DNA of 64,000 bases from an uncultured Candidatus Saccharibacteria bacterium (GCA_964546795.1 CAZJKG010000004.1:18994-82993); one strand, 5' to 3'. Shown: positions 6,280 to 56,500, numbered from the stretch's first letter. A program made the numbers and translations. Notes: generated by a model from the letters alone, not told the origin.

Positions 6280-6771
6280 ATGAATGGAAATGTCATAGGG
6301 ACTGTTATTGTTTTGATCATTGTCATTGCTGGCGGTTGGTTTCTATTTTCGAAAACTCCGGCAAATGCCCCATCCACAATCACGACAGAAGAGGCGGCTG
6401 TGACGAGCACAACTATCGACGTGTCGCCTACGACGCCTACGACAGTCGTTTACAGCGATCAAGGATTCTCACCGGCAAGCATCACTGTCACTCTCGGTAC
6501 AACTGTAACGTTCGTGAATCAAAGTTCGGATGATATGTGGGTCGCTTCGGCTATGCATCCAGCGCATACCGTCTACAGCGGCACCAGTTTGAGCCAGCAT
6601 TGTCCTGATACGGATAGTTCTGCGTTCGATGAGTGCAAAGGTGATACATCCGGAAGTTCCTACTCCTTCACATTCAATAAAGAAGGTGTCTGGAAATATC
6701 ACGATCACCTAAATCCAACTCGATTTGGCACTATCATCGTGACTGCCGCACCAGCAGCTACACCGATCTAA
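6280..6771 (+). CDS. Membrane-anchored cupredoxin-like domain protein
   Basis: N-terminal TM, Thr/Pro-rich linker, then a beta-domain with TVTFVNQSSDDMWVASAMHPAH and YHDHLNPTRFGTIIV. Paralog of 58706..59113. Confidence 0.5.
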   Translation: MNGNVIGTVIVLIIVIAGGWFLFSKTPANAPSTITTEEAAVTSTTIDVSPTTPTTVVYSDQGFSPASITVTLGTTVTFVNQSSDDMWVASAMHPAHTVYSGTSLSQHCPDTDSSAFDECKGDTSGSSYSFTFNKEGVWKYHDHLNPTRFGTIIVTAAPAATPI

Positions 6772-10167: not shown

Positions 10168-10241
10168 CCGCCCCTAGCTCAGCTGGTTAGAGCATCGAGC
10201 TTATACCTCGAGGGTCCTTGGTTCGAGTCCAAGGGGGCGGA
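10168..10241 (+). tRNA. tRNA-Ile (UAU)
   Basis: Acceptor CCGCCCC/GGGGCGG; U8A9; D arm GCUC-AGCUGGUUA-GAGC; anticodon stem UCGAG/CUCGA; loop CUUAUAC; T arm CUUGG-UUCGAGU-CCAAG; discriminator A. Confidence 0.8.
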
Positions 10242-10250
10242 CAAAACAAG

Positions 10251-12227
10251 TTATGCGATATCGCCTGCCTCCGCGGACAGGCCTGAACCGAGTGGCGCGA
10301 TGACGATTCCCTCTTCCTCGCGTTTTTTTGGCGTGATACCGTTGGCAATGAGTATCTTCTCAAATTCGGCGCGTTCAATAGTTTCCTTCTCGATGAGCTC
10401 CTTTGCGATGGCATCGAGCGCGCCGCGATGCTCGGTGATGACTATCTTCGCACGCGCTTTTGCCTCCTCAATGATACGCGCCACCTCGGCGTCTATCTCA
10501 GCCGCGACACGCTCGGAGTATGGCTCGTTACCGAGCTGTCGTTCGCCGAAAGCGATGGGTCCCATTTTCTCGCTCATGCCGTAGCGCACGACCATGTCGC
10601 GTGCGAGCGCCGTGATGACCATGAGATCATTACTCGGCCCCGTGGTTACGTCGTCAAAAAGCATTTCTTCCGCGACGTAGCCGCCGAGCGTCGCGGCGAT
10701 ATCGTCAAGGAATTGTTTTTTGGAATGCATCTTCCTGTCCTCAAAAGGAAGCTTCAATGTGTAGCCGGCAGCGCGCCCGCGACTGATGATGGAAATCTTA
10801 TGCACCGGATCGGCGTTCGGGAGCACCGAAGAAACGAGTGCATGTCCGGCCTCGTGATATGACGTGAGTTCTTTTTCCTTCTTGGAGAGCAGGTGGCTTT
10901 TGCGTTCCGGGCCGAGCATCACTTTTTCTATGGAGCGGATGAGGTCGTACTGTGTCACTTCGGTCCTGTTCTCCCGCGCTGCAAGAATAGCCCCTTCATT
11001 CATAAGCGAGTAGAGCTCGGCTCCTGAGAAACCGGGCGTGCGCTCGGCGATGACCGACAACGTTACATCCGGTCCCAAGGGCTTCTTGCGCGCATGTATC
11101 TGCAGTATCTCCTCGCGATCCTTCCTGTCCGGAAGGTCAATGGTAACGCGCCTATCAAAACGCCCCGGGCGCAACAATGCCGGATCAAGGACGTCGGGCC
11201 TATTGGTCGCTGCCATGACCACCACCTTTTCGGTTGGCTCGAAACCGTCCATTTCAACGAGTATCTGATTGAGTGTTTGTTCGCGCTCGTCATTGCCGCC
11301 ACCGACTCCCGCGCCGCGCACGCGCCCGACCGCGTCTATCTCGTCCACAAAAATGATGGCCGGGGCGGCTTTCTTCGCCAATTGAAAGAGATCGCGCACT
11401 CTTGAAGCCCCGACGCCGACAAACATCTCCACAAACTCGGAACCCGATATGGAGAAAAACGGTACGCCTGCTTCGCCGGCGACCGCGCGCGCCAAGAGCG
11501 TCTTGCCCGTACCTGGCGCGCCCATGAGGATGATACCTTTCGGGATGCGCGCGCCTATATCCAAAAATTTCTTCGGGCTCTTGAGGAAGTCCACGATCTC
11601 CAGAAGTTCTTCTTTCGCTTCGCGTGCGCCCGCGACATCCGCGAAGGTAACCCGCTGCGAAGAGTCGGCGGGGTCAATGACGCGCGCTTTTGATTGTCCG
11701 AAGCTGAAGGCCTGCATGCCCGCCCCCTTGACTTGTCGTGAGAGAAACCAAAAGAGAAACGCAATAAAAATAAGTGGCAGAAGAACCGGCGCAAGTGTGA
11801 GGAACCAGAATTGGAATCCCGATTGTCCTTGTATCGTGATGGACACTTTGGAAAGTTCCCCGGGCGTGACACCGTACGTCGCAAGCGTCTCCGGAAGACC
11901 GGCGGAAGGGTCCTTGCGTGACGTTTTATTGGAATCGTCGATGTAGACAAGTTTGAGTGAATCCCCGTTCACAATAATCGAACTTACTTTCCCCGCCGCG
12001 ACATCCGCCGCGACGACCGAGAGCGGAACATCGCTTGTCGGCTCCGTAAAACTCGCTATGAGCGAATACACGCTCATGAGGAGAAGGAAAATAAGAACCG
12101 TGGTTGTGAGATTGCCGAAAAACGAAGGGCCGCCCAAAAACGAGCGCCAGCCACGGCGTGCATTCCCTTTCAAATGAGAAGGGGGTGTCGCGCTCTGTTT
12201 CTGTTTCTTTGCCAGTACAAAAGACAT
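10251..12227 (-). CDS. ftsH: ATP-dependent zinc metalloprotease FtsH
   Basis: AAA+ Walker A GAPGTGKT; SRH region; HEAGHALV zinc-binding motif; two N-terminal TM helices. Confidence 0.95.
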
Positions 12228-12283
12228 GTGAAGGAGTATACAGAAAAACGCCCGATTTTCCTATTTTTCGCTATACTCACGCT

Positions 12284-12727
12284 ATGACGCTTGTGAAAAA
12301 CAAAAAAGCTCATCTGAAATATGCGCCGCTTGAGAGTTTCTCGGCGGGTCTTGAACTTCTTGGTTCAGAAGTGAAGTCGCTGCGAAATAAGAACGGGTCG
12401 CTTGATGGCGCGCGCGTGGTGGTGCGCGGTGGCGAGGCGTTTCTCGTCGGCATGACGATTCCGCCGTATCAGACGGCGAATATGCCGAAGAGTTACGACC
12501 CAGAACGGTCGCGACGTCTCCTTTTGACAAAGAAAGAAATAGCCACACTCGCCCTCGCCGAGTCCAAGAAGGGATTGACAATTATCCCACTTGAGGTATA
12601 TACTGCGGGTAGATTCGTGAAGGTGCGCATCGCCATCGCTCGCGGTAAAGGTAAGTCCGACAAACGCGAGGACTTGAAGAAGCGTGATGCGCTACGCGAA
12701 ACAGGGCGCGTCTTAAAAAATCGTTAA
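12284..12727 (+). CDS. smpB: SsrA-binding protein SmpB
   Basis: Internal Met start (MTLVKNKKA...) gives a typical ~147-aa SmpB with GSEVKSLR and a C-terminal basic tail. Confidence 0.9.
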   Translation: MTLVKNKKAHLKYAPLESFSAGLELLGSEVKSLRNKNGSLDGARVVVRGGEAFLVGMTIPPYQTANMPKSYDPERSRRLLLTKKEIATLALAESKKGLTIIPLEVYTAGRFVKVRIAIARGKGKSDKREDLKKRDALRETGRVLKNR

Positions 12728-12780: not shown

Positions 12781-13202
12781 GGGGGTGACCGGCTTTGACG
12801 GTCTGTACCTTGAAAGACGTGCGACGCAGTGCACTCCCGTCATCACTTAAAAACGCGGGAAAACAAACTTGCCAAGAACACTCTTGCAAGCGCAATGAAG
12901 TCGCCTTACTTCGGTAAGGTTGGCGACATCGCGTTCGCCTACGCGACGGCTCGCGGCTAACGCCCGACGCCCTCGCCCAGCGCGACGTTCATCCTCTCGA
13001 GTTCCCGCAGTCGGAGGCATGGGCGGAATTATCTGCGTGATCGTCCCTCGCGTTCCCACGCGTTGGGATTAAATAAGGGATCGAGCAGGAATGGTTTCGT
13101 CTGCGTTCCTCGCATCCTGTTTTAGACACTAACGCTGACTATGCGTCGTAGAAGCGCTTTCATAGACGGATTCGGACCGGAGTTCAACTCTCCGCACCTC
13201 CA
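12781..13202 (+). ncRNA. ssrA: tmRNA (ssrA)
   Basis: 5' end GGGGGUGACCGGCUUUGACGG resembles E. coli GGGGCUGAUUCUGGAUUCGACGGG. 3' end UUCGGACCGGAGUUCAACUCUCCGCACCUCCAC resembles UUCGGACGCGGGUUCAACUCCCGCCAGCUCCACCA. Acceptor GGGGGUG/CACCUCC has G3:U70. Lies immediately downstream of smpB. Confidence 0.8.
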
Positions 13203-13282
13203 CAAAATAACGAGTCCTTCCGAGGACGACTATATTTTGTGAGAATCCCGAGCGTACTCGCGAGGGGCTCCACAACAAACAT

Positions 13283-13309
13283 AAAACCTGCTCGGCTGAG
13301 CAGGTTTTA
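13283..13309 (+). terminator. Rho-independent terminator hairpin, bidirectional-looking
   Basis: aaaaCCTGCTCggctGAGCAGGtttt: stem 7 bp, loop 4 nt, flanked by an A-tract and a T-tract. Lies between tmRNA and a minus-strand small ORF. Confidence 0.6.
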
Positions 13310-13333
13310 TGGGGAACTATATACAAAGCTACC

Positions 13334-13537
13334 CTAGCGTTTAGAGGCATTTTTCTCGATTAAATATTGGTTTATTTGTTCTAGTTGAGCGACCTTATCC
13401 TCTAACTCACGAATGCGCTTCTTCCCAAACAAGTTGCTTATAGTGTCGCCAATATCGTCTAATAGCTTTAGTAGTAGAGCCACTGGATATAAAAAGATAA
13501 AAGCCAAAAACTTTTTCATATTTACCAAAAATGCCAC
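13334..13537 (-). CDS. Small membrane/coiled-coil protein (hypothetical)
   Basis: Hydrophobic helix FLAFIFLYPVALLLKLL, then a heptad-like tail ELEDKVAQLEQINQYLIEK. A second 38-aa TM mini-ORF lies immediately upstream at about 13529..13645 (minus strand). Confidence 0.3.
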   Translation of the reverse strand: MAFLVNMKKFLAFIFLYPVALLLKLLDDIGDTISNLFGKKRIRELEDKVAQLEQINQYLIEKNASKR

Positions 13538-13688
13538 AGAGCAATAAGACCGAGGACGACGAGACCGCCTGCCGAGGCGACCAAGATATTGATGTTGCTC
13601 TGTATTTCTTTCAGTTGTTCAAGTATGCGTTGTTCCATACCCACATTCTACCGTACCCTATCGGTTATCCACACATCAGAATATCCCC

Positions 13689-13713
13689 TTGACAGGTCAG
13701 TAAGGTGTATAAT
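13689..13713 (+). promoter_or_regulatory. Promoter-like element (TTGACA ... TATAAT)
   Basis: ttgaca at 13689-13694 and tataat at 13708-13713. The spacer is only 13 bp (atypical), but TG lies directly upstream of the -10. Predicted start about 13720, matching the candidate ncRNA 5' end. Confidence 0.4.
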
Positions 13714-13720
13714 GCGCATA

Positions 13721-14085
13721 GGTAATTGCCTCACGTTTGGCGACATGAGGCGGGCGGCGAAAGCCACGGAAGTCCGTAGAGGGTGGTCTTGCGAGGAGCG
13801 AAAGCTCCGCAAGCCAAACTGCGGGAGCTTTCAAACGGGGAAACCCAAACTTGAAATCCCTCCTGCAAGGCCGCCCCCTGCGGATTTTTCATTGCCTAAT
13901 AAACGAACCGCCCCCAAAGTGGGGGCAGTAGCGCGACTAGTAGGGGCCAGTCAAGACCAAAACGTGGTGAGGGTCGGGAGACATACCCGATATTAAACCT
14001 TACAAGTGTCTGGAAGCTTCTAGACTTCAACAACTCTGCAGAGTAAATCTAGCGTGTCTAGTGCCTCTTCGTTGTGAGCGATTAT
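13721..14085 (+). ncRNA. rnpB: Candidate RNase P RNA (rnpB)
   Basis: Non-coding ~365 nt. Has GGAAGUCCG (compare P4 GGAAAGUCCGG); GGGGAAACCCAAAC (compare GGGGAAACCCA of P15-16 region); GCAAGGCCGCC; a P12-like hairpin UCGGG-AGACAUA-CCCGA. Terminal pairing UAAUUGCCUCAC (13724-13735) with GUGAGCGAUUA (14074-14084) is P1-like. Fold not verified. Confidence 0.4.
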
Positions 14086-14170
14086 GTGCTGGTGGCGGAA
14101 GCGGTATACGCATCTACTTTGTGAGTAGGTATCCTGCGCGGATGTGCGGGTTCAAGTCCCGTCCAGTACA
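14086..14170 (+). tRNA. Atypical class II tRNA: Leu-type body with UGU (Thr) anticodon, G3:U70, A73
   Basis: Acceptor GUGCUGG/CCAGUAC with G3:U70; D arm UGGCGGAAGCGGUAUACGC (compare E. coli tRNA-Leu UGGCGGAAUUGGUAGACGC); anticodon stem UCUAC/GUAGG; loop UUUGUGA; 16-nt variable stem-loop; T arm GCGGG-UUCAAGU-CCCGU; discriminator A. Abuts the candidate rnpB 3' end. Confidence 0.55.
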
Positions 14171-14464
14171 CATCATTACAGCAGAGTAGTGGCGAGTTTC
14201 CTATTAAAATCTACCCTGTAGGGAAAGTATACCCCACCCGTTGAGCGTTATCCACATCCTTACCCGAGGGATTAAGATAGACCTATGAACAACTTCAAGA
14301 ACCTAGCCGACTTTAATAGAGGGGTGTGGACAACGTGTGGTAAGTCGTATACACTATCTGTATATTAATAACTAGGAAGTTGTGAATTTTTGCGGGAGTG
14401 AAAAATTGCAGAAAGGCTCTACTGCGGGGTGTAATTAGGCTAGCGCGAGCTAGAATCGAAAGCA

Positions 14465-15043
14465 CTACGATGAAGGAGTGCCGCCCTTCCACTCCCACAA
14501 AAGTTCGTAACTCTTTAGATAGTTTTCGTCCGTTCTGAAGAAAGTAACTACTTCACAAACAGGAGGCTGGTCGTCTTTAATTGTGGTCTCCAGAGAGCAT
14601 AGGCATTTATAATTATTTATCTCCTTCACAAAACAGTAAGCTCCTCGTTTCCCATCTTTATTCTTGTACACCTTGTCTGGGTACTTCAGGATAACGTGAA
14701 GATTTGCAACCCAAAAGTCAAACTCTTCGGCAGTGCGCTTATCGTAAATATGTTTGATAACGCGCGTATTTAGATAGACTTTATTGCACGAAGCATCAAT
14801 GCCTTTTACCACAGCAACAGTGAAGTGACATATAAATATCTGTACAAACTGAACGATTGCCTTCTTAGGCGTTCCGCGCACATATTTCTTGTATAGTTGG
14901 GCGAACATCGTCTGATTATTACACTTATTCATAAAAAGGAAATGCTCACAATCATAGGGTAACGTTGTATATAGTTCCCGTTTTATGTTTGTTGACTTCC
15001 CTACTGTTTTTACGTAGTGTGACCGCGGAACGGAAGGATTCAC
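14465..15043 (-). CDS. Hypothetical protein in an AT-richer segment
   Basis: 192-aa ORF with no recognisable motif. Local composition is visibly AT-richer than flanking genes. True start is uncertain; internal Mets exist. Confidence 0.35.
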   Translation of the reverse strand: MNPSVPRSHYVKTVGKSTNIKRELYTTLPYDCEHFLFMNKCNNQTMFAQLYKKYVRGTPKKAIVQFVQIFICHFTVAVVKGIDASCNKVYLNTRVIKHIYDKRTAEEFDFWVANLHVILKYPDKVYKNKDGKRGAYCFVKEINNYKCLCSLETTIKDDQPPVCEVVTFFRTDENYLKSYELLWEWKGGTPSS

Positions 15044-35929: not shown

Positions 35930-35930
35930 G

Positions 35931-36003
35931 AGCCGGAGATCGGATTCGGACCGATGGCCTACCCCTTACGAAGGGGTTGCTCTACCAACTGAGCTACTCC
36001 GGC
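35931..36003 (-). tRNA. tRNA-Thr (CGU)
   Basis: Acceptor GCCGGAG/CUCCGGC; D arm GCUC-AGUUGGUA-GAGC; anticodon stem ACCCC/GGGGU; loop UUCGUAA; T arm AUCGG-UCCGAAU-CCGAU. Confidence 0.85.
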
Positions 36004-44516: not shown

Positions 44517-47500
44517 TTAATGGGAGATTTCTCTGAACTTCGGAGGCCCCGACAATACCTTCACCGTGAGCGGTACGTCAACCGATCTCGTGATGCCTGC
44601 CGCAAGGCCGGTGACGCGCACGACGTATGTTGTAGCGGGGTCAAGCGTTGCGCCTGCGGCAAAGTGTAGCACGGGGACGGTGCCGACTGCGTATTCTTCG
44701 GGAGAGAAGGAGTCCTTCTCGAGGGTGACAGTGACTCCCTCGACCGCGGGGACGAGCTCGGTAGAAAGAACAATCGTCGTGGCGAAGCCGCCTTGCGCGA
44801 TTCCCCATACACGCACGTCCTTCGGCACCACGGACGTCGTACCGCCGGAACGAGAGACCTCAAAGAGTCCTTCGGAGCGTAGGAGGTAATTCGATTCTAT
44901 GACCGATACGGTAACTGCGTCATCCACTGTGCCGGTTTGATTTGAACAGGTCAACGTATACGTGGCCGTTTCCTGCAGATTCGAAATCGTCTCGGTGAAG
45001 GTGCCGTTGGCGGTCTTTGCGCCAGACCAGCTGCCGGAGGCGAGACAGCTGTCTGCATTTTCAGAAGTCCAGGTTAGGATTATTGATTCTCCTTGGTTTA
45101 TTGTCGTTTGATTGGCAGAGAGAGTTACTGTCGGGAGTACGGATGGCGGAGGAATAATGGATTCGCATGAAGTATTATCGGCGCTTTGTATGAATCCTGG
45201 GTTGCAAGTCCACCCTAGATAATATGTAGTGTCATTGCATGAGCCCGCAGGAGATGAGGAACAGAATTGCTGTCCCACAAAAGAGGAGTTTGCGGGCTTC
45301 ATCGTGACCGCTCCAGATGGTTTGACAATATTGCACAGATTGAAACATTGGTCTGTCACGGTCACTATAGGTGCCGTACTGGGGATATTAGGAATATCTT
45401 GAATAAAGGAATAAGGAGGCGCATACTGAAGTGAAGATGGCTCAGTAGTATCTACTATTGGTGCCGGACCAAGATAATCAAGTTGCTGATCTCCAGAAAC
45501 ATAACCAATGAAAGCCGCCGCTACAGTACCAGTTACATAACCAGGGAGAGCTAACCCGACAAGGCTAGCACCGCGCTGGAGATTGAGTGAGATGGTCGTC
45601 TGGTCCACTACAGAGTTTATTGCGAGACCGGTAGCTTCAGCACCAAATCTTATAGCTTTATTATGATCGGATTCGAGACAACCACAGAAAAAATTAGTAA
45701 CAGATTTTAACTTAACAATTGTTGATGAAAAGAGTCCTAATTCACTTCGTTCAATCCCCTGGGGCGGATTCCATATTGTGCTTGAATGGAAAGCCACTGC
45801 GCCAACAAAATTTCGATCTATAGCTTGAATTTGCGCATCAATGACACCAAGATCATGTGATAATTGACCAATTCTTGCTTGCAAAAATTCCGGAAAATTA
45901 GGGTCATTAGGGCCCATGACGTCCACGATTTTCTCAAGAACCATGTTAAAATTAAAAGCAGTAAGTGCCTTATCTGCTTCTAGCATAAACCTCCTTATTG
46001 CTAATTGCGCAATATTTAGAGATGTTCTGTCTTCAATTTTGACGCTGTCGACAAGCATCGGGAAGTTTGCTTGTGTTCGATCGGAAAGTTCACGAGCGGC
46101 TTCCGCAGTTAGAGGAGGAAGCTGTTCTGAAAGAACATCTAGTTTTTCTAGTGATGGTGCACTTTCCACGGCATTTATCTCCGAGACCCTGACTTCCAGT
46201 TCGTGAGGCACCTCTTGCGTAGGCGCTAGGCCAAGTTCAGATTTTAATGAAATATTTTGTCTCTCTTCCATCATTTCAGGGGTCACAAGACCTCTTTCCA
46301 AAAGCCAATTGAATTCCAAATCAACTAACTCGTTAGCTGCTACATTACGAGCTACTTTCAAATCTTCTAAGTTTTGTTTTCTTGTGTCCGAAATAGGTAT
46401 ATTGAAGGCCTTCCTGATAGCTGTGCCTGCTTCCGTGTCAGTAATTCGTTGATCGAGGTCCTGAACAAGTGATTTCTTTCCAACTATTTCTAGTGAGAAT
46501 AATTGTTCTGTCGCCTTATCAAACTCTATTGCTCTCAGTTCCGCTTGTTCGGATTTTAATGCGCCAACCCGATCAGAAACATTTATCCTCTCATCATCTG
46601 TAAGCAAGTTATATTTACGACCATATTGTCGGCCCATTGCATTTAATTCATTTCCTATTTCAATCAATCTCGGACCTTCAAGCCCATTCTCCTTAAGCCA
46701 GATGCCCTTCAAAGAATTTGACTCTTTATACAGATTACTCAGATTCTCTTGGACTTCATCAAGTCGTATTTCTAGGTTGATACTAAATTCTCCGCTCCTT
46801 ATCGAATTTATATCCGTTGGGAGTAATGCTGCAGCCAAGGCCTCATTTGCAGCAATCTCCCCGTCTACCTTTAGAATACTTGAGGGGACGCTGTAACGAA
46901 CATTTTGAGAATTGGCATCTGCAAATGCTATCGTTATTAATTCTGCTGCATGAGCATTATTCTCAGTAATTGCAGTTACGTTTTCCACCACAGTATCAGT
47001 TTTTGCACTGTTAAAGCGCAAAGATGTTGCTTGAGGTAGTTCGGCTTTCAAATCCGCAAGTAATAATCCTACGTTTGGATCATAGGGGATTATATGCACA
47101 TCATCAAGAACCGCAAAGTTTTTCCCTTGTGCGTCTTCAACAGAAATCAAGGGTAATAAGCGTGTTACCCCATCCTTACCGGTTTCACCACTGAATTCTG
47201 GAAATAGTATTCGGAAAATCTGACTCTCTGGATTTAATGTCAATCCACCGCCGCAATCTTGAGATACAGCATTAAGGCCTTCGCCAAGCGAGAAACTCCT
47301 TCCTGGTGTTTGTGCAGGCGACAAATCAGATACATCATTAAGAGCCACTCCTCGCGGAACGATTGAACAGAACGTATTTTGCGCTGGAAGTTTATTAACG
47401 GCGACACGGGATATAGTATTTCCCTTTGCAAAAGAAGAGATGGGCGAGAAGAGATTTTCACCTTGTTTCAAAATATCATTTAGTGCAAAGTGTGAGAACG

Positions 47501-50500
47501 AAGTATCTTCCTTTTTCGCAAGACGTATGGCGTCCCAATTTTCAAAGCCAATGCCAGTGGTTCCATTGATATCGGCCGAGAACGCAAAGCGTTCTTTATC
47601 TTCGGAAATGGCTTTCAAGAGAAGTTGGTCGCTGACATCCTTTACTTTAGGATCAATGAGACGAATTCTGTCACCATCGGGATTTTGCGTGCGCGTGATA
47701 AAACCGACATCCACGTGAGTATTCCCTTTTATCCCTCCGTAATCTTTCTCGCCAATGAGTCCGACTTGGGTTAATGCGAAATCAAGCGCGTCTTGGAGCG
47801 GCATCCCAATCGCGGCGTAGAACTTGCTTAACACATTCATAAGGACGCTCGCTTCCACAAACGCAAGGTCTTCGGAGTCCCCAATAATAGGAGATGCTAT
47901 TGTGCCATCGGGATTGACCTGAAGTGTATCGCGTACACTTTTCCACGTATCACTTGTATCATTTTGATCATACACAAAAGAGGGATAAAGCGCGTCATGC
48001 ACCAATTCCGCCATATCGTTCGCGGACTTACTTGCCAAATGGGACTGAGTTAGGAGTATATTACTGCCAAGCTTATCAACTGGCTCAATGAAAGGTTCGA
48101 GATAGGTATTCAAGGTCGAGAGTTTCTTTAGGTAATCAATGTTGAAATCAGGGACGCCATACGTCTGTTGCAATCCGGCAAGCGTAAAGTGCGGGGTCGC
48201 CCAGAATACAAATCCTTCAGGATCGGCAGATGGAGGAAATATAGCGTTAATGGAAGGAGGAATCGAGAAACGTTGAGTTCCTGTTGGTGTGGCGAAGCTC
48301 TGAACCAAGAAATAGGCCCCGAAAATGCCATTGGTGCCGGTTGCGTATGTCCCAAGTGTTACCGGAGAGACCGTATCGGTAGAATCCGTTATTTGTCCTG
48401 CAGTTGCGCCAAGTCCTTTCATAAGTCCGAGGGGCTCAATGAAATACAGCTTGCCGAAAGTATCTTTAAATCCTACGGACGCGTGTCCGGTGCCTGCCCT
48501 ATCGACAATCGGTCCGGCTTTATTGACAAATGCCGACATCGTTCCTACGCGATTTGCGGCATCAGTATTCCCTACGCGCAGGAACAGATTTCGGATCAAA
48601 GCATAAACGAGAATGGCGGAATCATCGCAGTCGCCACCCTTGCGCGCAAGGGTCTGGAACGGCAGCTGGACATTGTCGTAGCGCGCATCAAAACTCGGCG
48701 TATCAAAGAGATAGGTAATTAAATTCAAACTATAGAAATATTTATAGAATTCTTTGATAAGCGCAATCTCGCTTTTCGCCTTTAAATCAACTCCTTTGGC
48801 TGTCATATCTTTCTCAAATTGATCAAGGAGCAAAGCGATTGACGGATCGGTATACGAATTCACTTCATCAAGGGAGAAGAAACCACCTCTTCCGTTATTT
48901 ATCGTCGAGTTGTAGTGGTAGGTCTTGCTGCTATTCGCATCGATAAAAAGACCAGGGCCTTCAAAGGTGGAATCCCATATGTCATGGCGTCGTTCAAACG
49001 CAAGCATGTCATCGTAGCTTGTCGCTCGAAGCATTCGATTGACGCTTGCTACATCCGTCATGTCAATAAATGCCGAGTGCAGGGAACCCATACGCACTGC
49101 GCCGGGCATGATATAAAATCCCTTGAAGTATCCTGTCTGATCCTGACCGGTCCATGCCATCGCCGTCGTCTCAAGATCAAGGTCCGATGTCCATGATTTG
49201 GCCGCCCCCCACGCTCTATATTCAATCGCGTAGATCGCCTGCACCATGCGGCGCGTTGCGTCAAGCCATGCGGTCTGACGCTGAGGGTCCTTAGCGGAGT
49301 CCGTACCGATTGTCTCAAGCCGATTTTTGTAGGATTGCAAAAGATTCTTGGTTACCTGATACAGCGCTTCTTGTTCAGACATACTTACCGGGATGCCGAG
49401 GGATTCAAGGATTTTGATTCCCATATCGCGCTCCACGAATGGGTTCTGGTAGGTGAATTCTTCGGCGGTGTCGGATTGGCCGGGCAGTATTCCCTTCAGT
49501 TTATACCGCACGGTGCGCTTCAGTACTGATTCCTGATTGAAAATCCTGTACGTGGAGACCGTATAGGTTGACGCATCATCGCTGTAGGTATAGCGGTATT
49601 CGGTCCACGGTTTCCCTTCTCCGTCAAAATACCGGATAGTACTTGCCCGCGCCCCGTCAAATACCACTTCCGAAACCAATTCTTCCGCAGGACTGTACCC
49701 CTTGTATGACAACACGGTGAATGCCGCCGTATCGGCGTATTCGTAGACACCTCTACTGAGGAGCGAGCCGTCTGTTTGGTATTTGTCGATTTCGGCGGTT
49801 TTCAGATACCCACTTGGGTGATACGTGTAGCGGGTCTTTGACGTAACGTCGCCTGCGGCACTGTAGAGAAGACGTTCCGCGCCGGAACGCAGCCGCGTGG
49901 GCGTGTAGAAGAACGTATTTTGCGAGCGGAGCTGCGGCGTGTCCCCCGCATAGAGGGGCACCGTGTGGTACACCAATTCATTGTCTTCCAGAGAATACGT
50001 CCGTACGGCCCCCTGGCGGTTCCGCAGAGAAAGACCGACGGTCTCGGAATCATACGTGCCGTTCACGTAATCAATGAGTGTCTTCTCCGACAGTTGTCCG
50101 TTCGTAATTTTTGTCTTGCTGCTTGAAAGGAGCGTGCTGGGGCTCTGCGTTTCGGAGATAATAGTGTTTTCACCGGTCGCTTTGCCGTTTGCATCATAGG
50201 CGGTCTCGGTAAATGAATACTTCGGCTCGGGCGTTTGCGTGTAGGTGCGGACCGACGCGAGCGTACCATCCGCGCCATAGGAATACAGGTGCTTCTCGTA
50301 GCGATTCGCATCGTAATACAGCAAGTCGTCAGAGAGTTGGCCGTCGGGACGATACGTGTAGTTCTTGGACCATTCGTATGCGTTCGTCTGCACATTGAAG
50401 ACGTGGGAATACTGGAGTTTTCCCTGTTCGTCGTAGCGATTATAGCGTTCGCGATCGCCGCGGCGCATGATTTCTTTCCGTATCGTGCCGCTGGGGTAGT

Positions 50501-53500
50501 ACAGCCGGATGTCTTTTTTGGTGACGCCGTCGAGGCCGTAATTAAATTCTTTTTCGGGGCTTCCCTGCTCGCCATAGAACACCTCGCCGGTCTTCGTTGT
50601 GCCGTCCGGAGCGAATATGGTCGTAGAGAGGAGAGAGGAGGTTGAGATATTGTTGCTAGCGTAGGTATTGATAAACGCGACGGTGCCGTCCAGACGGATG
50701 AATGTCTTGGATGCGGGCGCGGCTGATATGGCCGGTTCAGTCGGAGCCGTCAGCGCCGGAGTCGGCAGAAGTTCTATCGATGGGACAAGTTCTCTGAGCG
50801 GCGTCGTTATATCAATGACTGGCGCATCGGCTGGCACATCCGCAAATGCGGCGGTGACGGAGGGGATGCGATTGCGAGTAACTTTTACCGTGCATGATCC
50901 GACTCCCCTACAATCCCCGGTCCATCCGATGAAACGCCCTCTGTTGTTTGCGTAGGAAGCAAGGGTTACTAACTGGTCGTCCGCAAAAAGGCCTTTGCAT
51001 GTTCCCGAGGAACAGGTGATTCCCGAAGGATTTGAGATAACGCTCCCCGAGCCGCGAACCGATACCCGCAATTCAGACACGCCGGACGCAAAGAGAGGTC
51101 TAAAGAGATATGATCTATCCATCTTGAGAGTGCAGAGATCGGTGCTTGGATAACATTCCGATCCGTTCCATCCGATAAACGAGTTTCCTTTTTCAGCGAC
51201 CGGAGTCAGGGTAACGAGCGACCCCACAGGGAATACTGCAGAACACGTCCCCGGACAATCAATGCCGGAAGGAGATGACTTCACGCGCCCTTGTTCTGTA
51301 GTAAGACCTTCTATTGAAATTGAGGGGCGCAGTGTGAAATTGAAAACTGGTCGATTTCCACTAAGGGAACCACATCTATTACCATAACAGTAGTACTCTC
51401 CATTATTAGGGCCATTAAATGCTCCGCCGGCATCAGGATATACCATAACAATCGAAGGTTTACTAAAGCTCGGCGTCGAGCAGACAGGCGGGCAATTAAT
51501 TCCTTTCCCCGTAACATGGCCGCTTCCATTCACCACGACGGAAAAGTCAGACGGTTGTGATCCAGCCCCTCCAATATCAAAAGCGAGCTGCAGATTTTTT
51601 GAGACCTTCACGGTGCATTTCTTGTGCGCCGTTTTCTGTTCCGCGTCTTCCGCACATGGAGAAGGCGTGCTGTACCTATAATTCGAATTGTCCTGTATGT
51701 CCGCCCATGACCATATGACAGTATCGCTGTAGCCGGACCCGGGAAGCATTATAAGCGTTACGTCATTATCCGTTGTAAATGTGGTGCTGCACACTGGGGC
51801 GTCCGATCTAATACCTCCTACTCCTCCAACACCTCCAACACTTCCAACACCTCCTCCCTGCCAACTGCAATTCATTCCCAGCGGATCAGAAATAATGCGC
51901 CCGCTGCTGCCTAGATAAACAACAGATCCGGCGTCCAAACTAAGGGTGCTTACCGTATCACCCCATGCTTCAAGCTCGTCAAGCGCAAAAACAATTGAGC
52001 TATTAAATTCGTCTTTGGCGTCGGGGAAACGCTCCGTCGTTAAACTCCCCGAACCCGTCGCGCGGACGCGCATCTGCGTCACCCCCTCCCACGAACCGAC
52101 CGCTTCAAGCTGTTTTTTTGTATCGGTTGCCTGGCGGGCTATGGGGTTGTTTCTCATCGGACTCTCGTAGGTCGCGACGTCTTTCCAGGCGCCGGACTGG
52201 AACACGGAGAGCGTTATGGTGAAATTCGCGTTGGCGATATAGTTCGGACTTGAGAGGAAGAACATTCCTTCCGTCGGAGCAATGGCTTTAATGCTCTTGA
52301 GCGAAACAGATTTATTGAAATTCACCGTCGCTTCATACGTGAATGAACACGGACTCGATGGAAGCAGGAGACAGAGTCCGTAGTTGCCGACCTGATTGCC
52401 CTGAATGCCGTCTTTGACTCTTGAGAAATTCCTGTAGCGCTCGGAGAATACGGGGTCTGTAGGCATTGACCACGCCGGGCCCGTGAATTGCTGACTGCCG
52501 GTTATCGTTGAGGCGGGATCAAGCACTCGGTTTGGAGCCGACGCTTGATATGTTTTGTCGCTAAAAGATGCAAGGACTTTGAATTCCGAACCTGCCGAAG
52601 GAAACTTGCAGGGACCAAGAGCGGAAAGACATGGTTGCGACCAACCGAGGAATGCTCCTTTTGTCTCAACGGCATCCAAACTCACGGCACCGATATTTCC
52701 GAATTCGGCGGTGCAGCTCACGTTCGGGCAGTCAATGCCCGCCGGAGTGGATACGACGCGGCCGACTCCGTCAAGCGTTACCGAGAGTTTTGTTTTCCCG
52801 AATTTCGCTTTCACGAAACGGTCTTTTGAAAAACTAAAGACGCAGGAAAAATTCGGATATTGCCAGAGTCCGGGTTTATTTTGTGCCGCGTTCCATCCGG
52901 TGCGATAACAGGCATAATCCGATGCTTCCCAGCCCAAAAATACAGAGTCATTCAGTGGGGTCTCGGTAAGATACTGACTCGTAAAGCTGCCGTATTGAGA
53001 ATAAGGAAATAGTGCTCTACAGGTCGGCGGACAGCTAATGCCCGCGGGAACCGATGTTACTTTCCCGTCCCCAACCACCAAGACAGAGATGGAGATCGGT
53101 TCCCCTATTTGGATCGGTTTTGAATATATGTCCAATGTCTTATCCCCGTCCATGGTAATGGTACAGGAGGGGAACGTCGTACCGCTGCATGTTCCGCCCC
53201 ACCCGAGAAATCTTCCTTGAGTACTGACTCCGTCCTGACTGTTATAGCCAAGATTGTATGTAGCGGTTGTAACAGTGCCGGGCGGAAAACGTACTGAGCA
53301 AGTTGATGTCGCTTCAACGCCAGAACCATTATTGAAAGAGCAGCCGTCTAAGGTTCCTGGTTGGAACAGGATGCCGCCAGAAATTGATTCGCCGGGCTTC
53401 AACTTCATGGACAGCGTCAACGTTTTCCCGCTGCCAAAAACGGCTTTCGCTGTTTTATCGCCATCAAGGGTAATGACACACCTACTGAACCAACTCTCAT

Positions 53501-56500
53501 CACCTACACAATCGCCTCCCCAATTGTAAAATGTATCAGATCTGTTATAGGCCCGAAGATCAACGTCGGTTCCCACATTGAATGTGGCACTACAGGTCGG
53601 CGGACAGTCAATACCGCGCGGACCCGAAACATGACCATCTCCTTGAACTTCAATGTTCAACGTCTTGGTTAAGGTTAAATCAAAGTTTGCCGTGACAGAA
53701 GAATCTTGGTTTATCAAAGATATACAGTCAGCGCTATACCCGGTGCAGAATCCGGACCAAGAAGAGAATGATCTTCCGAGAATTGTCAGTGCTTCCGCGT
53801 GTGAACCTCCTTTCGCTGGTGCCTCAAGCATGATTCTTTGATTTTGGGCATATCTTTGCACACAGGTCGTAACTAACGGTTTCTCGGGCGAAGGACAATT
53901 TGTAAGACTTACCTTACCATCTGAATATGCGATTCTCCCGCCTCCAGTGACGTTGATAGTAAGCTTGGGTCCTTGTCCGAATATCACGCTAAAAGATTTA
54001 TTATCATCAACTTTAACGAGACATGCTTGACCCGGTGGAGGAGCAACAAAACACGGCCCTTGTATGGAATTAGAGGATTCTCCCGGATCCGGATATGGTA
54101 CAAGATATAACTGTTCTCCAGGATTGTATTGTGCACTGCAGGTCGGCGGACAATTGATTTCGCTGCCGTGGTAAACACCATTGGACGAAACCTTACCGGG
54201 ACCAGTTACACTGACGGAGATTGTCTTTGTAGGAACCGCCGCAATATTTGCCGTGACGGTTTTGTCCGCATCCATGATGACGAGGCAGGCACTACTGTAT
54301 GGATTACTCTGTGTGCATACGCTTGAAAAGCTCTCTAATTTAAGCCCCGGTTGGGTGAAAGTCGTATAAAGAATGACTTTGGCACCGGGAACAAACTTGT
54401 CTTCGCATTTGTGAGGACACTGTATACTCCCACCTCTACCGTCTGAATATACACGGAATTCTGGGCTATCGGCTCCCGTACCTGTAAGCGACACCTTCAG
54501 TGTCTTTCTCATATCCAGGAAGTTCGCTTCAACCGACTTGCTTGCCTCCATGCTCACCGTGCAGGTGGTCGCGGTGCCAGTGCAGGCGCCGGACCATTCT
54601 TGGAATTGGAACCCCGGAGTCAGACGTACAGTGAGCGTGACGCTGTCGGTTTTGGCAAACCCGAAATGACAATATTTATTATTGTAACGAGTAAGATCGC
54701 AACCATTGCCGTTGGAAAGACCAATATATCCTCCATCCGGGATATTTTGAGAAATTGTCAGTACGGAAAGGTTCGTAAAGGTTGGTTGCAGGCCGATGTC
54801 GTAGAGAGGTGAGGTCGTGACCGTACAAGTTGACAGGGAAGCGTCCGGGCATCCATCAAAGCTGAGTAGAGATATTCCCGGTTTCGGCGTCGCAGTGAGG
54901 TTCACGGATGTGCCGGGGGGAAAATCAAACTCACATGCGGGTGGACAACTGATGCCTTGAGGTGATGAGGTGACACTTCCGGGCGCATTGTCGCCGAGAT
55001 TTCCCACACGGATCTTCCCGACATTCTCAACAAACCAAGGTGTGACGGTAAAGTCGGAGAGGGTTGGCTTGAGCGTACAAGGGTTCAGGTGCCCGACACA
55101 TCCAGGATCGGGACCCCTCCAATCGCGAAACACTTTACCATCGTCTGGAAGCGCGGCGAGGGTGAGCGTCTCGCCGGCGGGCACGCGCACCCTGCATACA
55201 GCGGGCGCGCGGCACTCCTCGGAGGAATCGGCGAGAGTAATGCTACCAAAATTGGTCGGCGTTATGGTGACGAGGCGGTTCGCGGCATTGAATACATTGA
55301 GGTCATAGATATCGGAAAAGATGTCTATGCCTCCTGAAGCGGAACCGGCAGAAACGTTCGCTTGGCCATCGACATGGATCTTCACTCCGCTCACATCCTC
55401 CCACGAGCCGATGATCTCAGGAACCCATCCGCCCATAGTGTCGTCACTCGATGACCGTTCAATGGTACGCACTTCCCTCCACACTCCCCCGATCTTGAGG
55501 GAGGTGGTGATAGTCACCGCTCCTGTGGCTTTGAATCCTCCAGAACCGTTATATCCGTAGTGGATATACTGTCCGCTGTATGTTGACCCTATTTGGCCCA
55601 CCGGAACCGATTGATGGAAATCAAGTTCGGCATCATAGGTGAAGCGGCATGATGTCGGAGTCACGCCCCCGATGGAACAACCTACTCGGTGGCGTGTTTC
55701 ATTCTTGTCATCTGTTATGTCAGCAAAGGTGCCTTCGGTTGATTTGCTGACGGTGATAGTGCCGCTGACGGTGGTTTTCGGGTCGACACTGTAGTTGAGG
55801 ACTGGTGTTGCAAAGGGCGATTTAAATGTCTCTCTTGCGTCCACGAAATTCGCCGTAACCGACTTGCTCGACTCCATGCTGACCGTGCAGGTGGTCGCGG
55901 TGCCGGTGCAGGCGCCGGTCCATTCTTTGAATTTGAAGAACTGGTTCGTATGGGGAAGTGCGGTAATCGTAACGGTAGCGGTCTTGACAAAATCGAAATT
56001 GCAATTTTTATTATTATAACGAGTAAGATCGCAAAAATGGCCGCTGGGAAGACGAACGTATCCTCCATTCGGAATATTTTGAGAAATTGTCAGCACGGAA
56101 AGATTCGTAAATATGGGCTGCATAGAGATGTCGTAGAGAGGTGAGGCCGTGACCGTACAGATTGACAGGGAATAGTCCGGGCATCCATAAAAGGTGAGAA
56201 GAGATGAGCCGGATTTTGGTGTTGCCGTCATGTTCACCGACGTACCGGAAGGGAAATTGAAGGTGCAGGTCGGAGGACACTCAATGCCCGAGGGGGATGA
56301 GGTAGTGATGCCAAGTTCACTACTATAGACCGAGATGCGTCCGACATTGTCGACAAACCATGGATTGACTGTGAGGTCGTAGAGGGTGGGTTTGAGCGTG
56401 CAGGGCTTTGCCGCTCCGACACATCCAGGGTCGGGCCCTCGCCAATCGCGAAGGGTCTTGCCATCGTCCGGAATCGCCGTGAAGGTGATCGTCTCTCCGA

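Follow-up and report, generated by a model that had tools for sequence, protein, structure and literature searches.

A leucine-type class II tRNA gene without a leucine anticodon is a conserved RNA gene of an IS1595-family transposon lineage

An 85-nt tRNA gene in the genome of an uncultured Candidatus Saccharibacteria bacterium, leucine-like in its body and threonine-like in its anticodon, belongs to a lineage of IS1595-family (ISNwi1-like) transposons as their conserved RNA gene. Some 22 distinct relatives carry the same leucine-type tRNA gene within IS1595-family transposons, and comparison among them shows that selection maintains a full tRNA shape in which D arm, variable arm and discriminator are of the leucine type. 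The copy with which we began lies in a 64,000-nt stretch of DNA, hereafter called the window, where it is carried by a non-autonomous IS1595-family element inserted in the terminator of ssrA. As to what the RNA does, we tentatively favour a tRNA that would be processed and charged without regard to its anticodon, and we weigh this reading against several others below.

The tRNA gene and its element in the window

Read from the sequence, the gene is a class II tRNA whose D arm and variable arm are of the leucine type. The 7-bp acceptor stem (GUGCUGG/CCAGUAC) includes G1-C72, U2-A71 and G3:U70 and is followed by the discriminator A73, with no CCA encoded in this copy. The D arm (UGGCGGAAGCGGUAUACGC) has a 3-bp stem, the anticodon stem of 5 bp (UCUAC/GUAGG) closes the 7-nt loop UUUGUGA (U33, the anticodon UGU, G37 and A38), the variable region (UAUCCUGCGCGGAUGU) is 16 nt long, and the T arm is canonical (GCGGG-UUCAAGU-CCCGU). 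The Rfam tRNA model (RF00005) aligns to 14086-14170 over its full length, with the extra arm as an insertion; its 47.4 bits exceed the gathering score of 29, with E = 5e-7 when the whole window is searched, and it places UGU at positions 34-36 with a posterior probability near 1. ARAGORN agrees that the gene is a tRNA and calls it tRNA-Thr(tgt) at 14086-14171, a label at variance with the leucine-type body. No alternative fold of the gene yields a leucine anticodon. The chimera described in the first-pass annotation, with a class II leucine-type body, a UGU anticodon, A73 and G3:U70, is therefore confirmed in all its parts by the sequence, ARAGORN and Rfam.

By its body (class II, leucine-type D arm, variable arm, A73) the gene is a tRNA-Leu, and by its anticodon it is not, since UGU stands in place of NAG or NAA and G35 is present in 22 of 22 family members. 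All full-length matches of the 85 nt in an annotated phage collection were tRNA-Leu genes, and the family member from a Limibaculum is 76.6% identical to the tRNA-Leu(UAA) of plasmid pMPPla107. The plasmid search returned only one tRNA-Leu match together with methyltransferase fragments, and the E. coli genomes searched with the 85 nt gave no match. Set against the features of tRNA-Thr (class I, A37, G1-C72 with C2-G71, an NGU anticodon), the gene agrees in its anticodon alone, having a class II body, G at position 37 and U-A as pair 2:71. The D arm is different in genuine serine tRNAs, both those of the window and those of the Patescibacteria loci, which also have G73 and a single unpaired base on the 3' side of the variable stem. 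The pair of features associated with alanine identity, G3:U70 and A73, is present in the window copy and in 0 of the 18 other aligned relatives. The plasmid pMPPla107 (L126; record 852040-854118) is a Pseudomonas megaplasmid with its own serS, which adjoins genes for tRNA-Leu(CAA) and tRNA-Leu(UAA).

The tRNA gene lies inside a 1,668-bp element, 13312-14979, bounded by 24-nt terminal inverted repeats (IRs) of the IS1595/ISNwi1 type. The features of the element and its insertion site are as follows.

12781-13205, + strand: tmRNA (ssrA) gene, given as context (Rfam RF00023, 91.7 bits, full length)
13280-13311, no strand: bidirectional terminator hairpin behind ssrA (terminator-like site, from the sequence)
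13304-13311, no strand: left target-site duplication of 8 bp, GTTTTATG (read directly; identical to 14980-14987)
13312-13335, + strand: left terminal inverted repeat, GGGAACTATATACAAAGCTACCCT (matches the IR pattern of related transposons exactly)
13334-13537, - strand: small 67-aa ORF with a hydrophobic N-terminus followed by a coiled-coil-like stretch
13907-13929, - strand: terminator-like hairpin within the element (terminator prediction)
14086-14170, + strand: class II tRNA gene of leucine type, conserved in the transposon family (ARAGORN, Rfam, sequence, covariance model)
14321-14979, - strand: cassette of right IR, PBECR3 gene and downstream sequence (91% identical to L038 495-1152)
14465-14932, - strand: PBECR3 protein gene of 155 aa, a second cargo (Pfam PF18812, 30.7 bits, cutoff 30)
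14956-14979, - strand: right terminal inverted repeat, GGGAACTATATACAACGTTACCCT (IR pattern match)
14980-14987, no strand: right target-site duplication of 8 bp, GTTTTATG (read directly)

The IR pattern taken from related transposons matches the window twice, in inverted orientation, where 0.01 matches are expected by chance. The element sits 107 bp downstream of ssrA; its target was the U-tract of the terminator, and joining the element flanks restores AAAACCTGCTCGGCTGAGCAGGTTTTATGTTTG. Family-type IRs and an 8-bp duplication are thus present and a DDE_Tnp_IS1595 gene is lacking. The window element was searched for remnants of transposase, DUF5343 and coiled-coil winged-helix genes and has no detectable one, so we file it as a non-autonomous derivative. 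The first-pass annotation had treated the gene as a lone host tRNA, but its IRs, its 8-bp duplication and its relatives identify it as the cargo of a transposable element. The 67-aa ORF has no family match and a weak PADLOC match (E = 0.0085), and it may not be a real gene.

The window is bacterial chromosome, and the gene order around the insertion is RecG, tRNA-Ile(UAU), FtsH, SmpB (12158-12727, upstream of ssrA), tmRNA, a gene-poor gap with the tRNA, and then PyrF and PyrE. DUF5343-bearing elements elsewhere in Patescibacteria (the P0007 locus and L027/L028) also lie near SmpB-FtsH or RecG, and this recurring neighbourhood may represent a preferred insertion region near ssrA. The presence of TTATCCACA boxes near the tRNA gene raised the idea of a replication origin, which was dropped once the comparable motif of the relatives proved to be a variant transposon IR. 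The tRNA-Ile(UAU) gene between RecG and FtsH (10168-10242, + strand) has a C1-G72 pair and the acceptor CCGCCCC...GGGGCGG-A; AUA in bacteria is usually read by a lysidine-modified CAU tRNA, and a UAU anticodon is uncommon. Farther along, the window holds a giant ORF of 4,691 uninterrupted amino acids (44517-58592, - strand).

The second cargo of the element encodes a predicted RNase of the Barnase-EndoU-colicin E5/D-RelE fold. Because the mechanical ORF extends to 15043, across the IR, the real start of the PBECR3 protein is taken as M38. Its homologues form 65 clusters of about 150 aa, nearly all with PF18812, and the nearest of them (P0021, 155 aa) is 95% identical. Their genes mostly occur alone, without a tRNA gene, as does the cassette in L038 (495-1152), and in other Patescibacteria the PBECR3 gene adjoins restriction-modification and toxin-antitoxin genes. 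In the window (14321-14979), in L038 (495-1152) and in L039-L041, a single or degenerate IS1595-type IR lies roughly 35-115 nt upstream of the PBECR3 start, so that the gene looks like an independent mini-cassette using the same transposon ends. A specific toxin/antidote pairing of the PBECR3 protein with the tRNA was considered and rejected in view of the PBECR3 cassettes of L038-L045, which have no tRNA gene.

Relatives, anticodons and selection on the RNA

Relatives were initially sought with a pattern consisting of the leucine-type D arm followed by the UGU loop, and the copies it returned were accordingly selected for UGU. Among 185,579 species genomes the pattern occurs in six places, four of them in Patescibacteria and two being identical copies in one Limibaculum contig; in metagenome contigs it occurs in 20 places, about 14 of which are class II tRNA(UGU) genes, and in viral contigs the UGU pattern gave no match. 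The first-pass annotation had proposed looking for the gene in related genomes, and about 22 diverged copies are now in hand, from Paceibacterota, Nomurabacteria, Saccharibacteria, Doudnabacteria, a Limibaculum and viral contigs. The names of the metagenome-assembled genomes that hold relatives of the element or of PBECR3 are likewise Paceibacterota, Nomurabacteria, Saccharibacteria and Doudnabacteria, together with "Patescibacteria group". A covariance model built from 19 relatives gives the window copy 90 bits and ordinary tRNAs at most 57. Three pattern matches (L017, L010 and L013), in which the tRNA-like sequence ends after the anticodon loop, were set aside and are read as probable tRNA-Leu genes, either truncated or interrupted by an intron. 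Two of these, L010 and L013, lie in phage-like arrays of 15-24 tRNA genes that include a class II tRNA with the anticodon ACU.

Most relatives also encode a DDE transposase and a winged-helix protein. The IS1595-family transposase gene is often near the tRNA gene, and its DDE_Tnp_IS1595 and zinc ribbon domains were confirmed; the tRNA gene itself adjoins one of two accessory genes, encoding either DUF5343 (about 250 aa) or a small coiled-coil winged-helix protein. The family IRs start GGGAAyTATATAC and enclose the whole gene set, as in these four elements.

L027, 4490-7277: element with IRs of 28 nt, 100% complementary
L031, 248-3269: IR-enclosed element
L036, 3668-5983: IR-enclosed element
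L008, 75-2542: IR-enclosed element

In L027, L031, L036, L011 and L006, IRs and 8-bp duplications surround the transposase, the winged-helix gene and the tRNA gene. The insertion sequence at L096 (695-2483), of 1.8 kb, consists of the transposase and the tRNA gene alone, and there the tRNA gene encodes ACCA. The RNA is present in a small part of the wider transposase group: 3 of 80 IS1595 transposase loci from viral contigs carry it (L046, L093 and L096) and 77 do not. The DUF5343 protein matches the PADLOC defence candidate PDC-M34A; ten other locus proteins submitted to PADLOC (transposases, winged-helix proteins and small ORFs) gave no defence match except a borderline one at E = 0.0055. 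In a full-text search of the literature, no insertion sequence was described as having a tRNA gene among its conserved parts.

Two 995-bp transposase-less copies, L021 4277-5271 and L026 12438-13432, lie on the same 378-kb contig, each with a C-terminal remnant of the transposase, a hairpin and the tRNA gene. The 8-bp duplications that flank them, TAACCTAG and TAAATTTT, have been exchanged between the two copies, which implies a recombinational inversion of the intervening segment. On a Paceibacterota contig, a LOOT RNA (Rfam RF03000, 75.2 bits; L002 4894-5007, + strand) lies about 1 kb downstream of the element.

Because the first set of copies had been selected for UGU, further copies were sought by other routes. 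Homologues of DUF5343 led to UGU in L031, L034 and L036, AGA in L027 and UGA in L029, and to one locus, L030, with no tRNA gene; the IS1595 transposases of viral contigs led to UGU in L046, GGA in L093 and UGG in L096. The anticodons of the family are UGU, UGA, AGA, GGA and UGG, always of the form NGN, with G35 alone constant. Whether relatives conserve the anticodon was a check suggested by the first-pass annotation, and among copies found without selection for UGU they do not. The UGA copy has the loop CUUGAAA. A tRNA-Leu(UAA) in which A35 changed to G is the probable ancestor of the family, since this change turns the leucine anticodon UAA into UGA, from which every other family anticodon differs by one step. 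The family shares with canonical bacterial tRNA-Leu(UAA) the D arm, the A15-U48 geometry, A73, the loop context YU-NNN-AA and a variable arm with 2-3 unpaired bases on its 3' side. It differs in position 35, which is G rather than A in every member, and consequently no copy reads a leucine codon. The resemblance of UUUGUA in the anticodon loop to TTTGTA in the inner IR suggested base pairing between the two, an idea rejected for want of covariation: L027, with AGA, keeps the same IR, and L031, with UGU, has a different one. The identity is taken as coincidence.

Selection on the RNA is evident from the alignment of 19 distinct copies, on which all pair counts are based. Pairing is maintained in 95.5% of cases in the acceptor stem, 100% in the D stem, 94.7% in the anticodon stem, 86.8% in the variable stem and 97.9% in the T stem. 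Both sides have changed at 7 of 7 acceptor pairs, and of the 24 cloverleaf pairs 22 have undergone compensatory changes, the remaining two being invariant. None of 500 shuffled controls reached the observed pairing values, and shifting the partners by 1-3 columns lowered pairing from 84% to 32-45%. Against this background of freely covarying pairs, the D arm and T loop are nearly invariant, as are U(-1) and A73 (18 of 19 copies each); every anticodon loop has 7 nt, and nearly all have U33 and A37-A38. With about 22 diverged copies and so many compensatory changes, the decaying pseudogene that the first-pass annotation had left as an option no longer fits.

The window copy differs from its relatives in several respects. 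It alone has three G-U pairs (3:70, 27:43 and 49:65), its Rfam tRNA score of 47.4 bits is the lowest among the copies scored (the others range from 50.8 to 56.8), and G3:U70 and G37 occur in this one copy of the 19. Alanine identity is hence at most a peculiarity of the window copy and not part of the design of the gene. No sigma-70-like promoter was found upstream of the tRNA gene.

The flanks of the gene add a further layer of structure. In the core Patescibacteria clade they extend the acceptor stem by about 18 bp, with covariation in 15 of the 18 pairs and duplex z-scores of -3 to -8.5; ordinary-tRNA controls average -6 kcal/mol. The helix is weak in the window copy (-11.6 kcal/mol, z = -1.2) and weak or absent in about 9 of the 22 members, this copy included. 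In the DUF5343-carrying elements, a hairpin of about 90 nt precedes the tRNA gene.

Possible roles of the RNA

The first-pass annotation expected such a tRNA to insert leucine or alanine at threonine codons, an expectation that finds no support in the coding sequences, where alignments indicate that ACA is still read as threonine in host and element genes alike. ACA makes up 19% of threonine codons in the window genes counted. When FtsH is compared with the T. maritima protein, ACA is aligned with threonine in 3 of 4 cases, conserved positions included, as against 3 of 7 for ACC and 4 of 8 for ACG. In the transposase and DUF5343 genes of the elements, ACA aligns with threonine about as often as other threonine codons do, and it is not enriched in the element's own genes. 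The tRNA-Thr(CGU) of the window (35930-36003) is a normal class I tRNA. Reassignment of ACA in the host is rejected on the FtsH alignment and codon usage, as is a private code of the element on the behaviour of ACA in the transposase and DUF5343 alignments and its lack of enrichment.

The reading we prefer, to which we assign a probability of roughly 0.45, is that the RNA is a transposon-borne tRNA that would be processed and then charged without regard to its anticodon, in the manner of a tRNA-Leu. RNase P and a 3' nuclease would cleave its transcript at the canonical sites, after which CCA would be added; we propose this processing because U(-1) and A73 are invariant inside a helix whose other pairs covary freely. 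The mature RNA would be charged independently of its anticodon, most likely by LeuRS, and in the window copy charging by AlaRS would also be possible through G3:U70 and A73. The charged RNA would then act as a low-level missense tRNA at ACA and ACG, on top of the host's normal threonine reading. This reading is favoured by the combination of a constant A73, D arm (A15-U48) and U(-1) with free acceptor pairs and a free anticodon, a pattern that matches recognition by RNase P and LeuRS in E. coli. The constancy of A73 and the D arm is in particular consistent with bacterial LeuRS recognition. The acceptor pair 1:72 (G-C, C-G or G-U) varies independently of the anticodon, which fits the E. coli LeuRS rules and not those of ThrRS, ProRS and SerRS. 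That L096 encodes ACCA also supports a true tRNA. The rules of LeuRS recognition are those established for E. coli, and those of Patescibacteria may differ; this counts against the preferred reading, as does the absence of a sigma-70-like promoter upstream of the gene. Leucine at threonine, serine or proline codons would, moreover, harm the element's own ACA-using proteins, and the 18-bp flank helix of the core clade could keep the ends of the RNA closed, as in a tRNA mimic. G37 beside U36 is unusual in a tRNA reading ANN codons, and since it is confined to the window copy, that copy may be drifting.

A serious competitor, which we rate somewhat lower, is that the RNA is a non-decoding tRNA mimic that serves the transposon and is never used on the ribosome. 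Such a mimic might be a self-contained processing or stability signal for element transcripts, cut by RNase P, RNase Z or RNase III, for which the plant mitochondrial t-elements and the mascRNA at the 3' end of MALAT1 provide parallels; it might have a regulatory function, with either the winged-helix protein or the transposase of the element binding to it; or it might be a decoy for tRNA-targeting nucleases. A role in the transposon would explain why the tRNA gene lies within the IRs in every architecture and has been kept in two independent transposase-less derivatives (the window copy and the L021/L026 type), but 77 of the 80 related transposase loci do without the RNA, and transposase chemistry therefore does not need it. 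The gene adjoins an accessory winged-helix gene on the same strand except in L096, which has no such gene, yet the protein partner is inconstant, being DUF5343, the coiled-coil winged-helix protein or, in L096, none. Likewise, the conserved leader-trailer helix and the upstream hairpin of about 90 nt in the core clade would suit a mimic, but that helix is weak or absent in the many members noted above, and a predicted RNase neighbours the tRNA gene in the window copy, whereas PBECR3 genes elsewhere mostly have no tRNA gene beside them. Changes of anticodon among close relatives would be unexpected if the reading of one codon mattered. A processing signal, however, needs only the acceptor and T arms, and the anticodon arm, the 7-nt loop, U33, A37 and the D arm have all been kept.

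Alternatively, the RNA could be a correctly charged extra tRNA carried as cargo, each copy decoding its own codon as phage tRNAs do, which we consider unlikely. Under such a scheme ThrRS would read G35-U36 in the UGU copies, ProRS G35-G36 in the UGG copy, and SerRS the long arm of the UGA, AGA and GGA copies. The synthetases for all five anticodons indeed use either G35 and position 36 or the long variable arm, as is established for E. coli, and ACA, UCA, UCU and CCA are A/U-ending codons that are common in AT-rich Patescibacteria, ACA with its 19% share in the window included. The bodies of the RNAs nevertheless fit these synthetases poorly: four UGU copies have C1-G72, the window copy has U2-A71 instead of C2-G71 and G37 instead of A37, the UGG copy has G1-C72 where ProRS wants C1-G72, and the copies with serine anticodons have A73 or U73, not G73, along with a leucine-type variable arm and A15-U48 geometry. 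Nor is ACA enriched in the element genes.

A long shot is that the tRNA-shaped RNA is no cargo at all but a cofactor or sensor that, with the winged-helix protein, controls an IS1595-type DDE transposase. Transposition might, for example, be coupled to the cell's state of tRNA processing or charging, and a tRNA-derived RNA would join the short list of RNA-dependent bacterial transposons. Finally, a decaying host tRNA-Leu pseudogene or a sign of ACA reassignment is very improbable and largely refuted: its support comes from the window copy, the only one with G37 and three G-U pairs and the lowest in Rfam tRNA score, but purifying selection with compensatory changes runs through the family, the gene is mobile with IRs intact and a perfect duplication, and ACA matches threonine in FtsH (3 of 4) and, as often as other threonine codons, in the transposase and DUF5343 genes.

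Relation to known elements and RNAs

The element and its tRNA combine two known kinds of thing, insertion sequences that carry passengers and tRNAs whose identity and anticodon are mismatched. The IS1595 family reportedly includes, in its ISNwi1 group, forms with passenger genes. The relatives described here belong with this group by their DDE_Tnp_IS1595 and IS1595 zinc ribbon domains, family-type IRs and 8-bp duplications, and the IR start GGGAAyTAT fits "ggnnatTAT", which we take to be the ISNwi1-group end. Unlike any form described in the literature searched, they have a tRNA gene as their conserved passenger, most often alongside a winged-helix gene; the window copy, for its part, lacks a transposase and is a non-autonomous mobile insertion cassette.

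On the RNA side, the closest case in its proposed working is that of the nematode nev-tRNAs, which are said to be class II, leucine-type tRNAs with glycine (CCC) or isoleucine (UAU) anticodons, reportedly charged with leucine because LeuRS ignores the anticodon. They too join a leucine body to a foreign anticodon, but they are eukaryotic and chromosomal, lie on no transposon and have other anticodons. Natural mismatches of body and anticodon in bacteria include tRNAProA and the allo-tRNAs, some of them on mobile or accessory DNA. The former is reportedly a class I tRNA of Streptomyces with a dedicated synthetase, ProRSx, whereas the present RNA is class II and has no linked synthetase; the latter are said to have an 8/4 or 9/3 acceptor/T-stem geometry, in contrast to the 7/5 geometry found here (acceptor 7 bp, T stem 5 bp).

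Like the present RNA, the bacterial Y RNA YrlA has D and T arms resembling those of a tRNA, and its own 5' and 3' ends pair in a long helix. The YrlA of M. smegmatis is an RNase P substrate to which CCA is added (PMC4201824); a basal helix replaces the anticodon arm of YrlA, and its "acceptor" is a closed stem-loop (PMC4201824). In the present RNA, by contrast, the anticodon arm is complete and the helix continues the acceptor stem. With E-values up to 1 allowed, the Rfam YrlA model matched neither the window nor the relatives' copies, and no TROVE/Rsr (Ro60) gene was found in the neighbourhoods examined. We consider an identity as Y RNA or YrlA ruled out by the missing Rfam match, the different topology and the lack of a nearby Ro gene.

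To our knowledge, tRNAs with mismatched body and anticodon are rare in nature, and the cases known are chromosomal oddities or, in some instances, lie on mobile or accessory DNA. In the present case the mismatched tRNA is a conserved gene of a mobile element and not one stray chimera; the element has spread through several Patescibacteria lineages and into an alphaproteobacterium, and the tRNA gene survives in transposase-less copies. If the RNA is charged with leucine or alanine, a transposon is spreading missense decoding of threonine, serine or proline codons between genomes, which would be a new route to altered translation fidelity and possibly a new selfish or defence cargo. A less radical but still new formulation is that a leucine-charged NGN tRNA would be a "deliberate mistranslation" gene moving horizontally among Patescibacteria. 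If the RNA is uncharged, a family of DDE transposons has recruited a complete tRNA fold for its own use, which would be equally unexpected. In either event, annotation pipelines will label such genes tRNA-Thr, tRNA-Ser or tRNA-Pro and so distort the tRNA inventories of Patescibacteria.

Other UGU tRNA genes were met outside the transposon family. L022 1523-1623 (- strand) and L012 88-187 hold a class II tRNA(UGU) of 101 nt with a variable arm of about 30 nt, which ARAGORN misses and to which the Rfam tRNA model gives 53.9 bits. It lies directly 3' of a tRNA 3'-end fragment in GC-rich DNA, with no IS1595 IR nearby, and may represent a second mobile context for long-arm UGU tRNAs. At L023 6424-6499, also in GC-rich DNA, a 76-nt class I tRNA-Thr(UGU) has the same leucine-like D arm, UGGCGGAAUUGGUAGACGC, and is followed by a tRNA-Ile(UAU) gene at 6649-6722.
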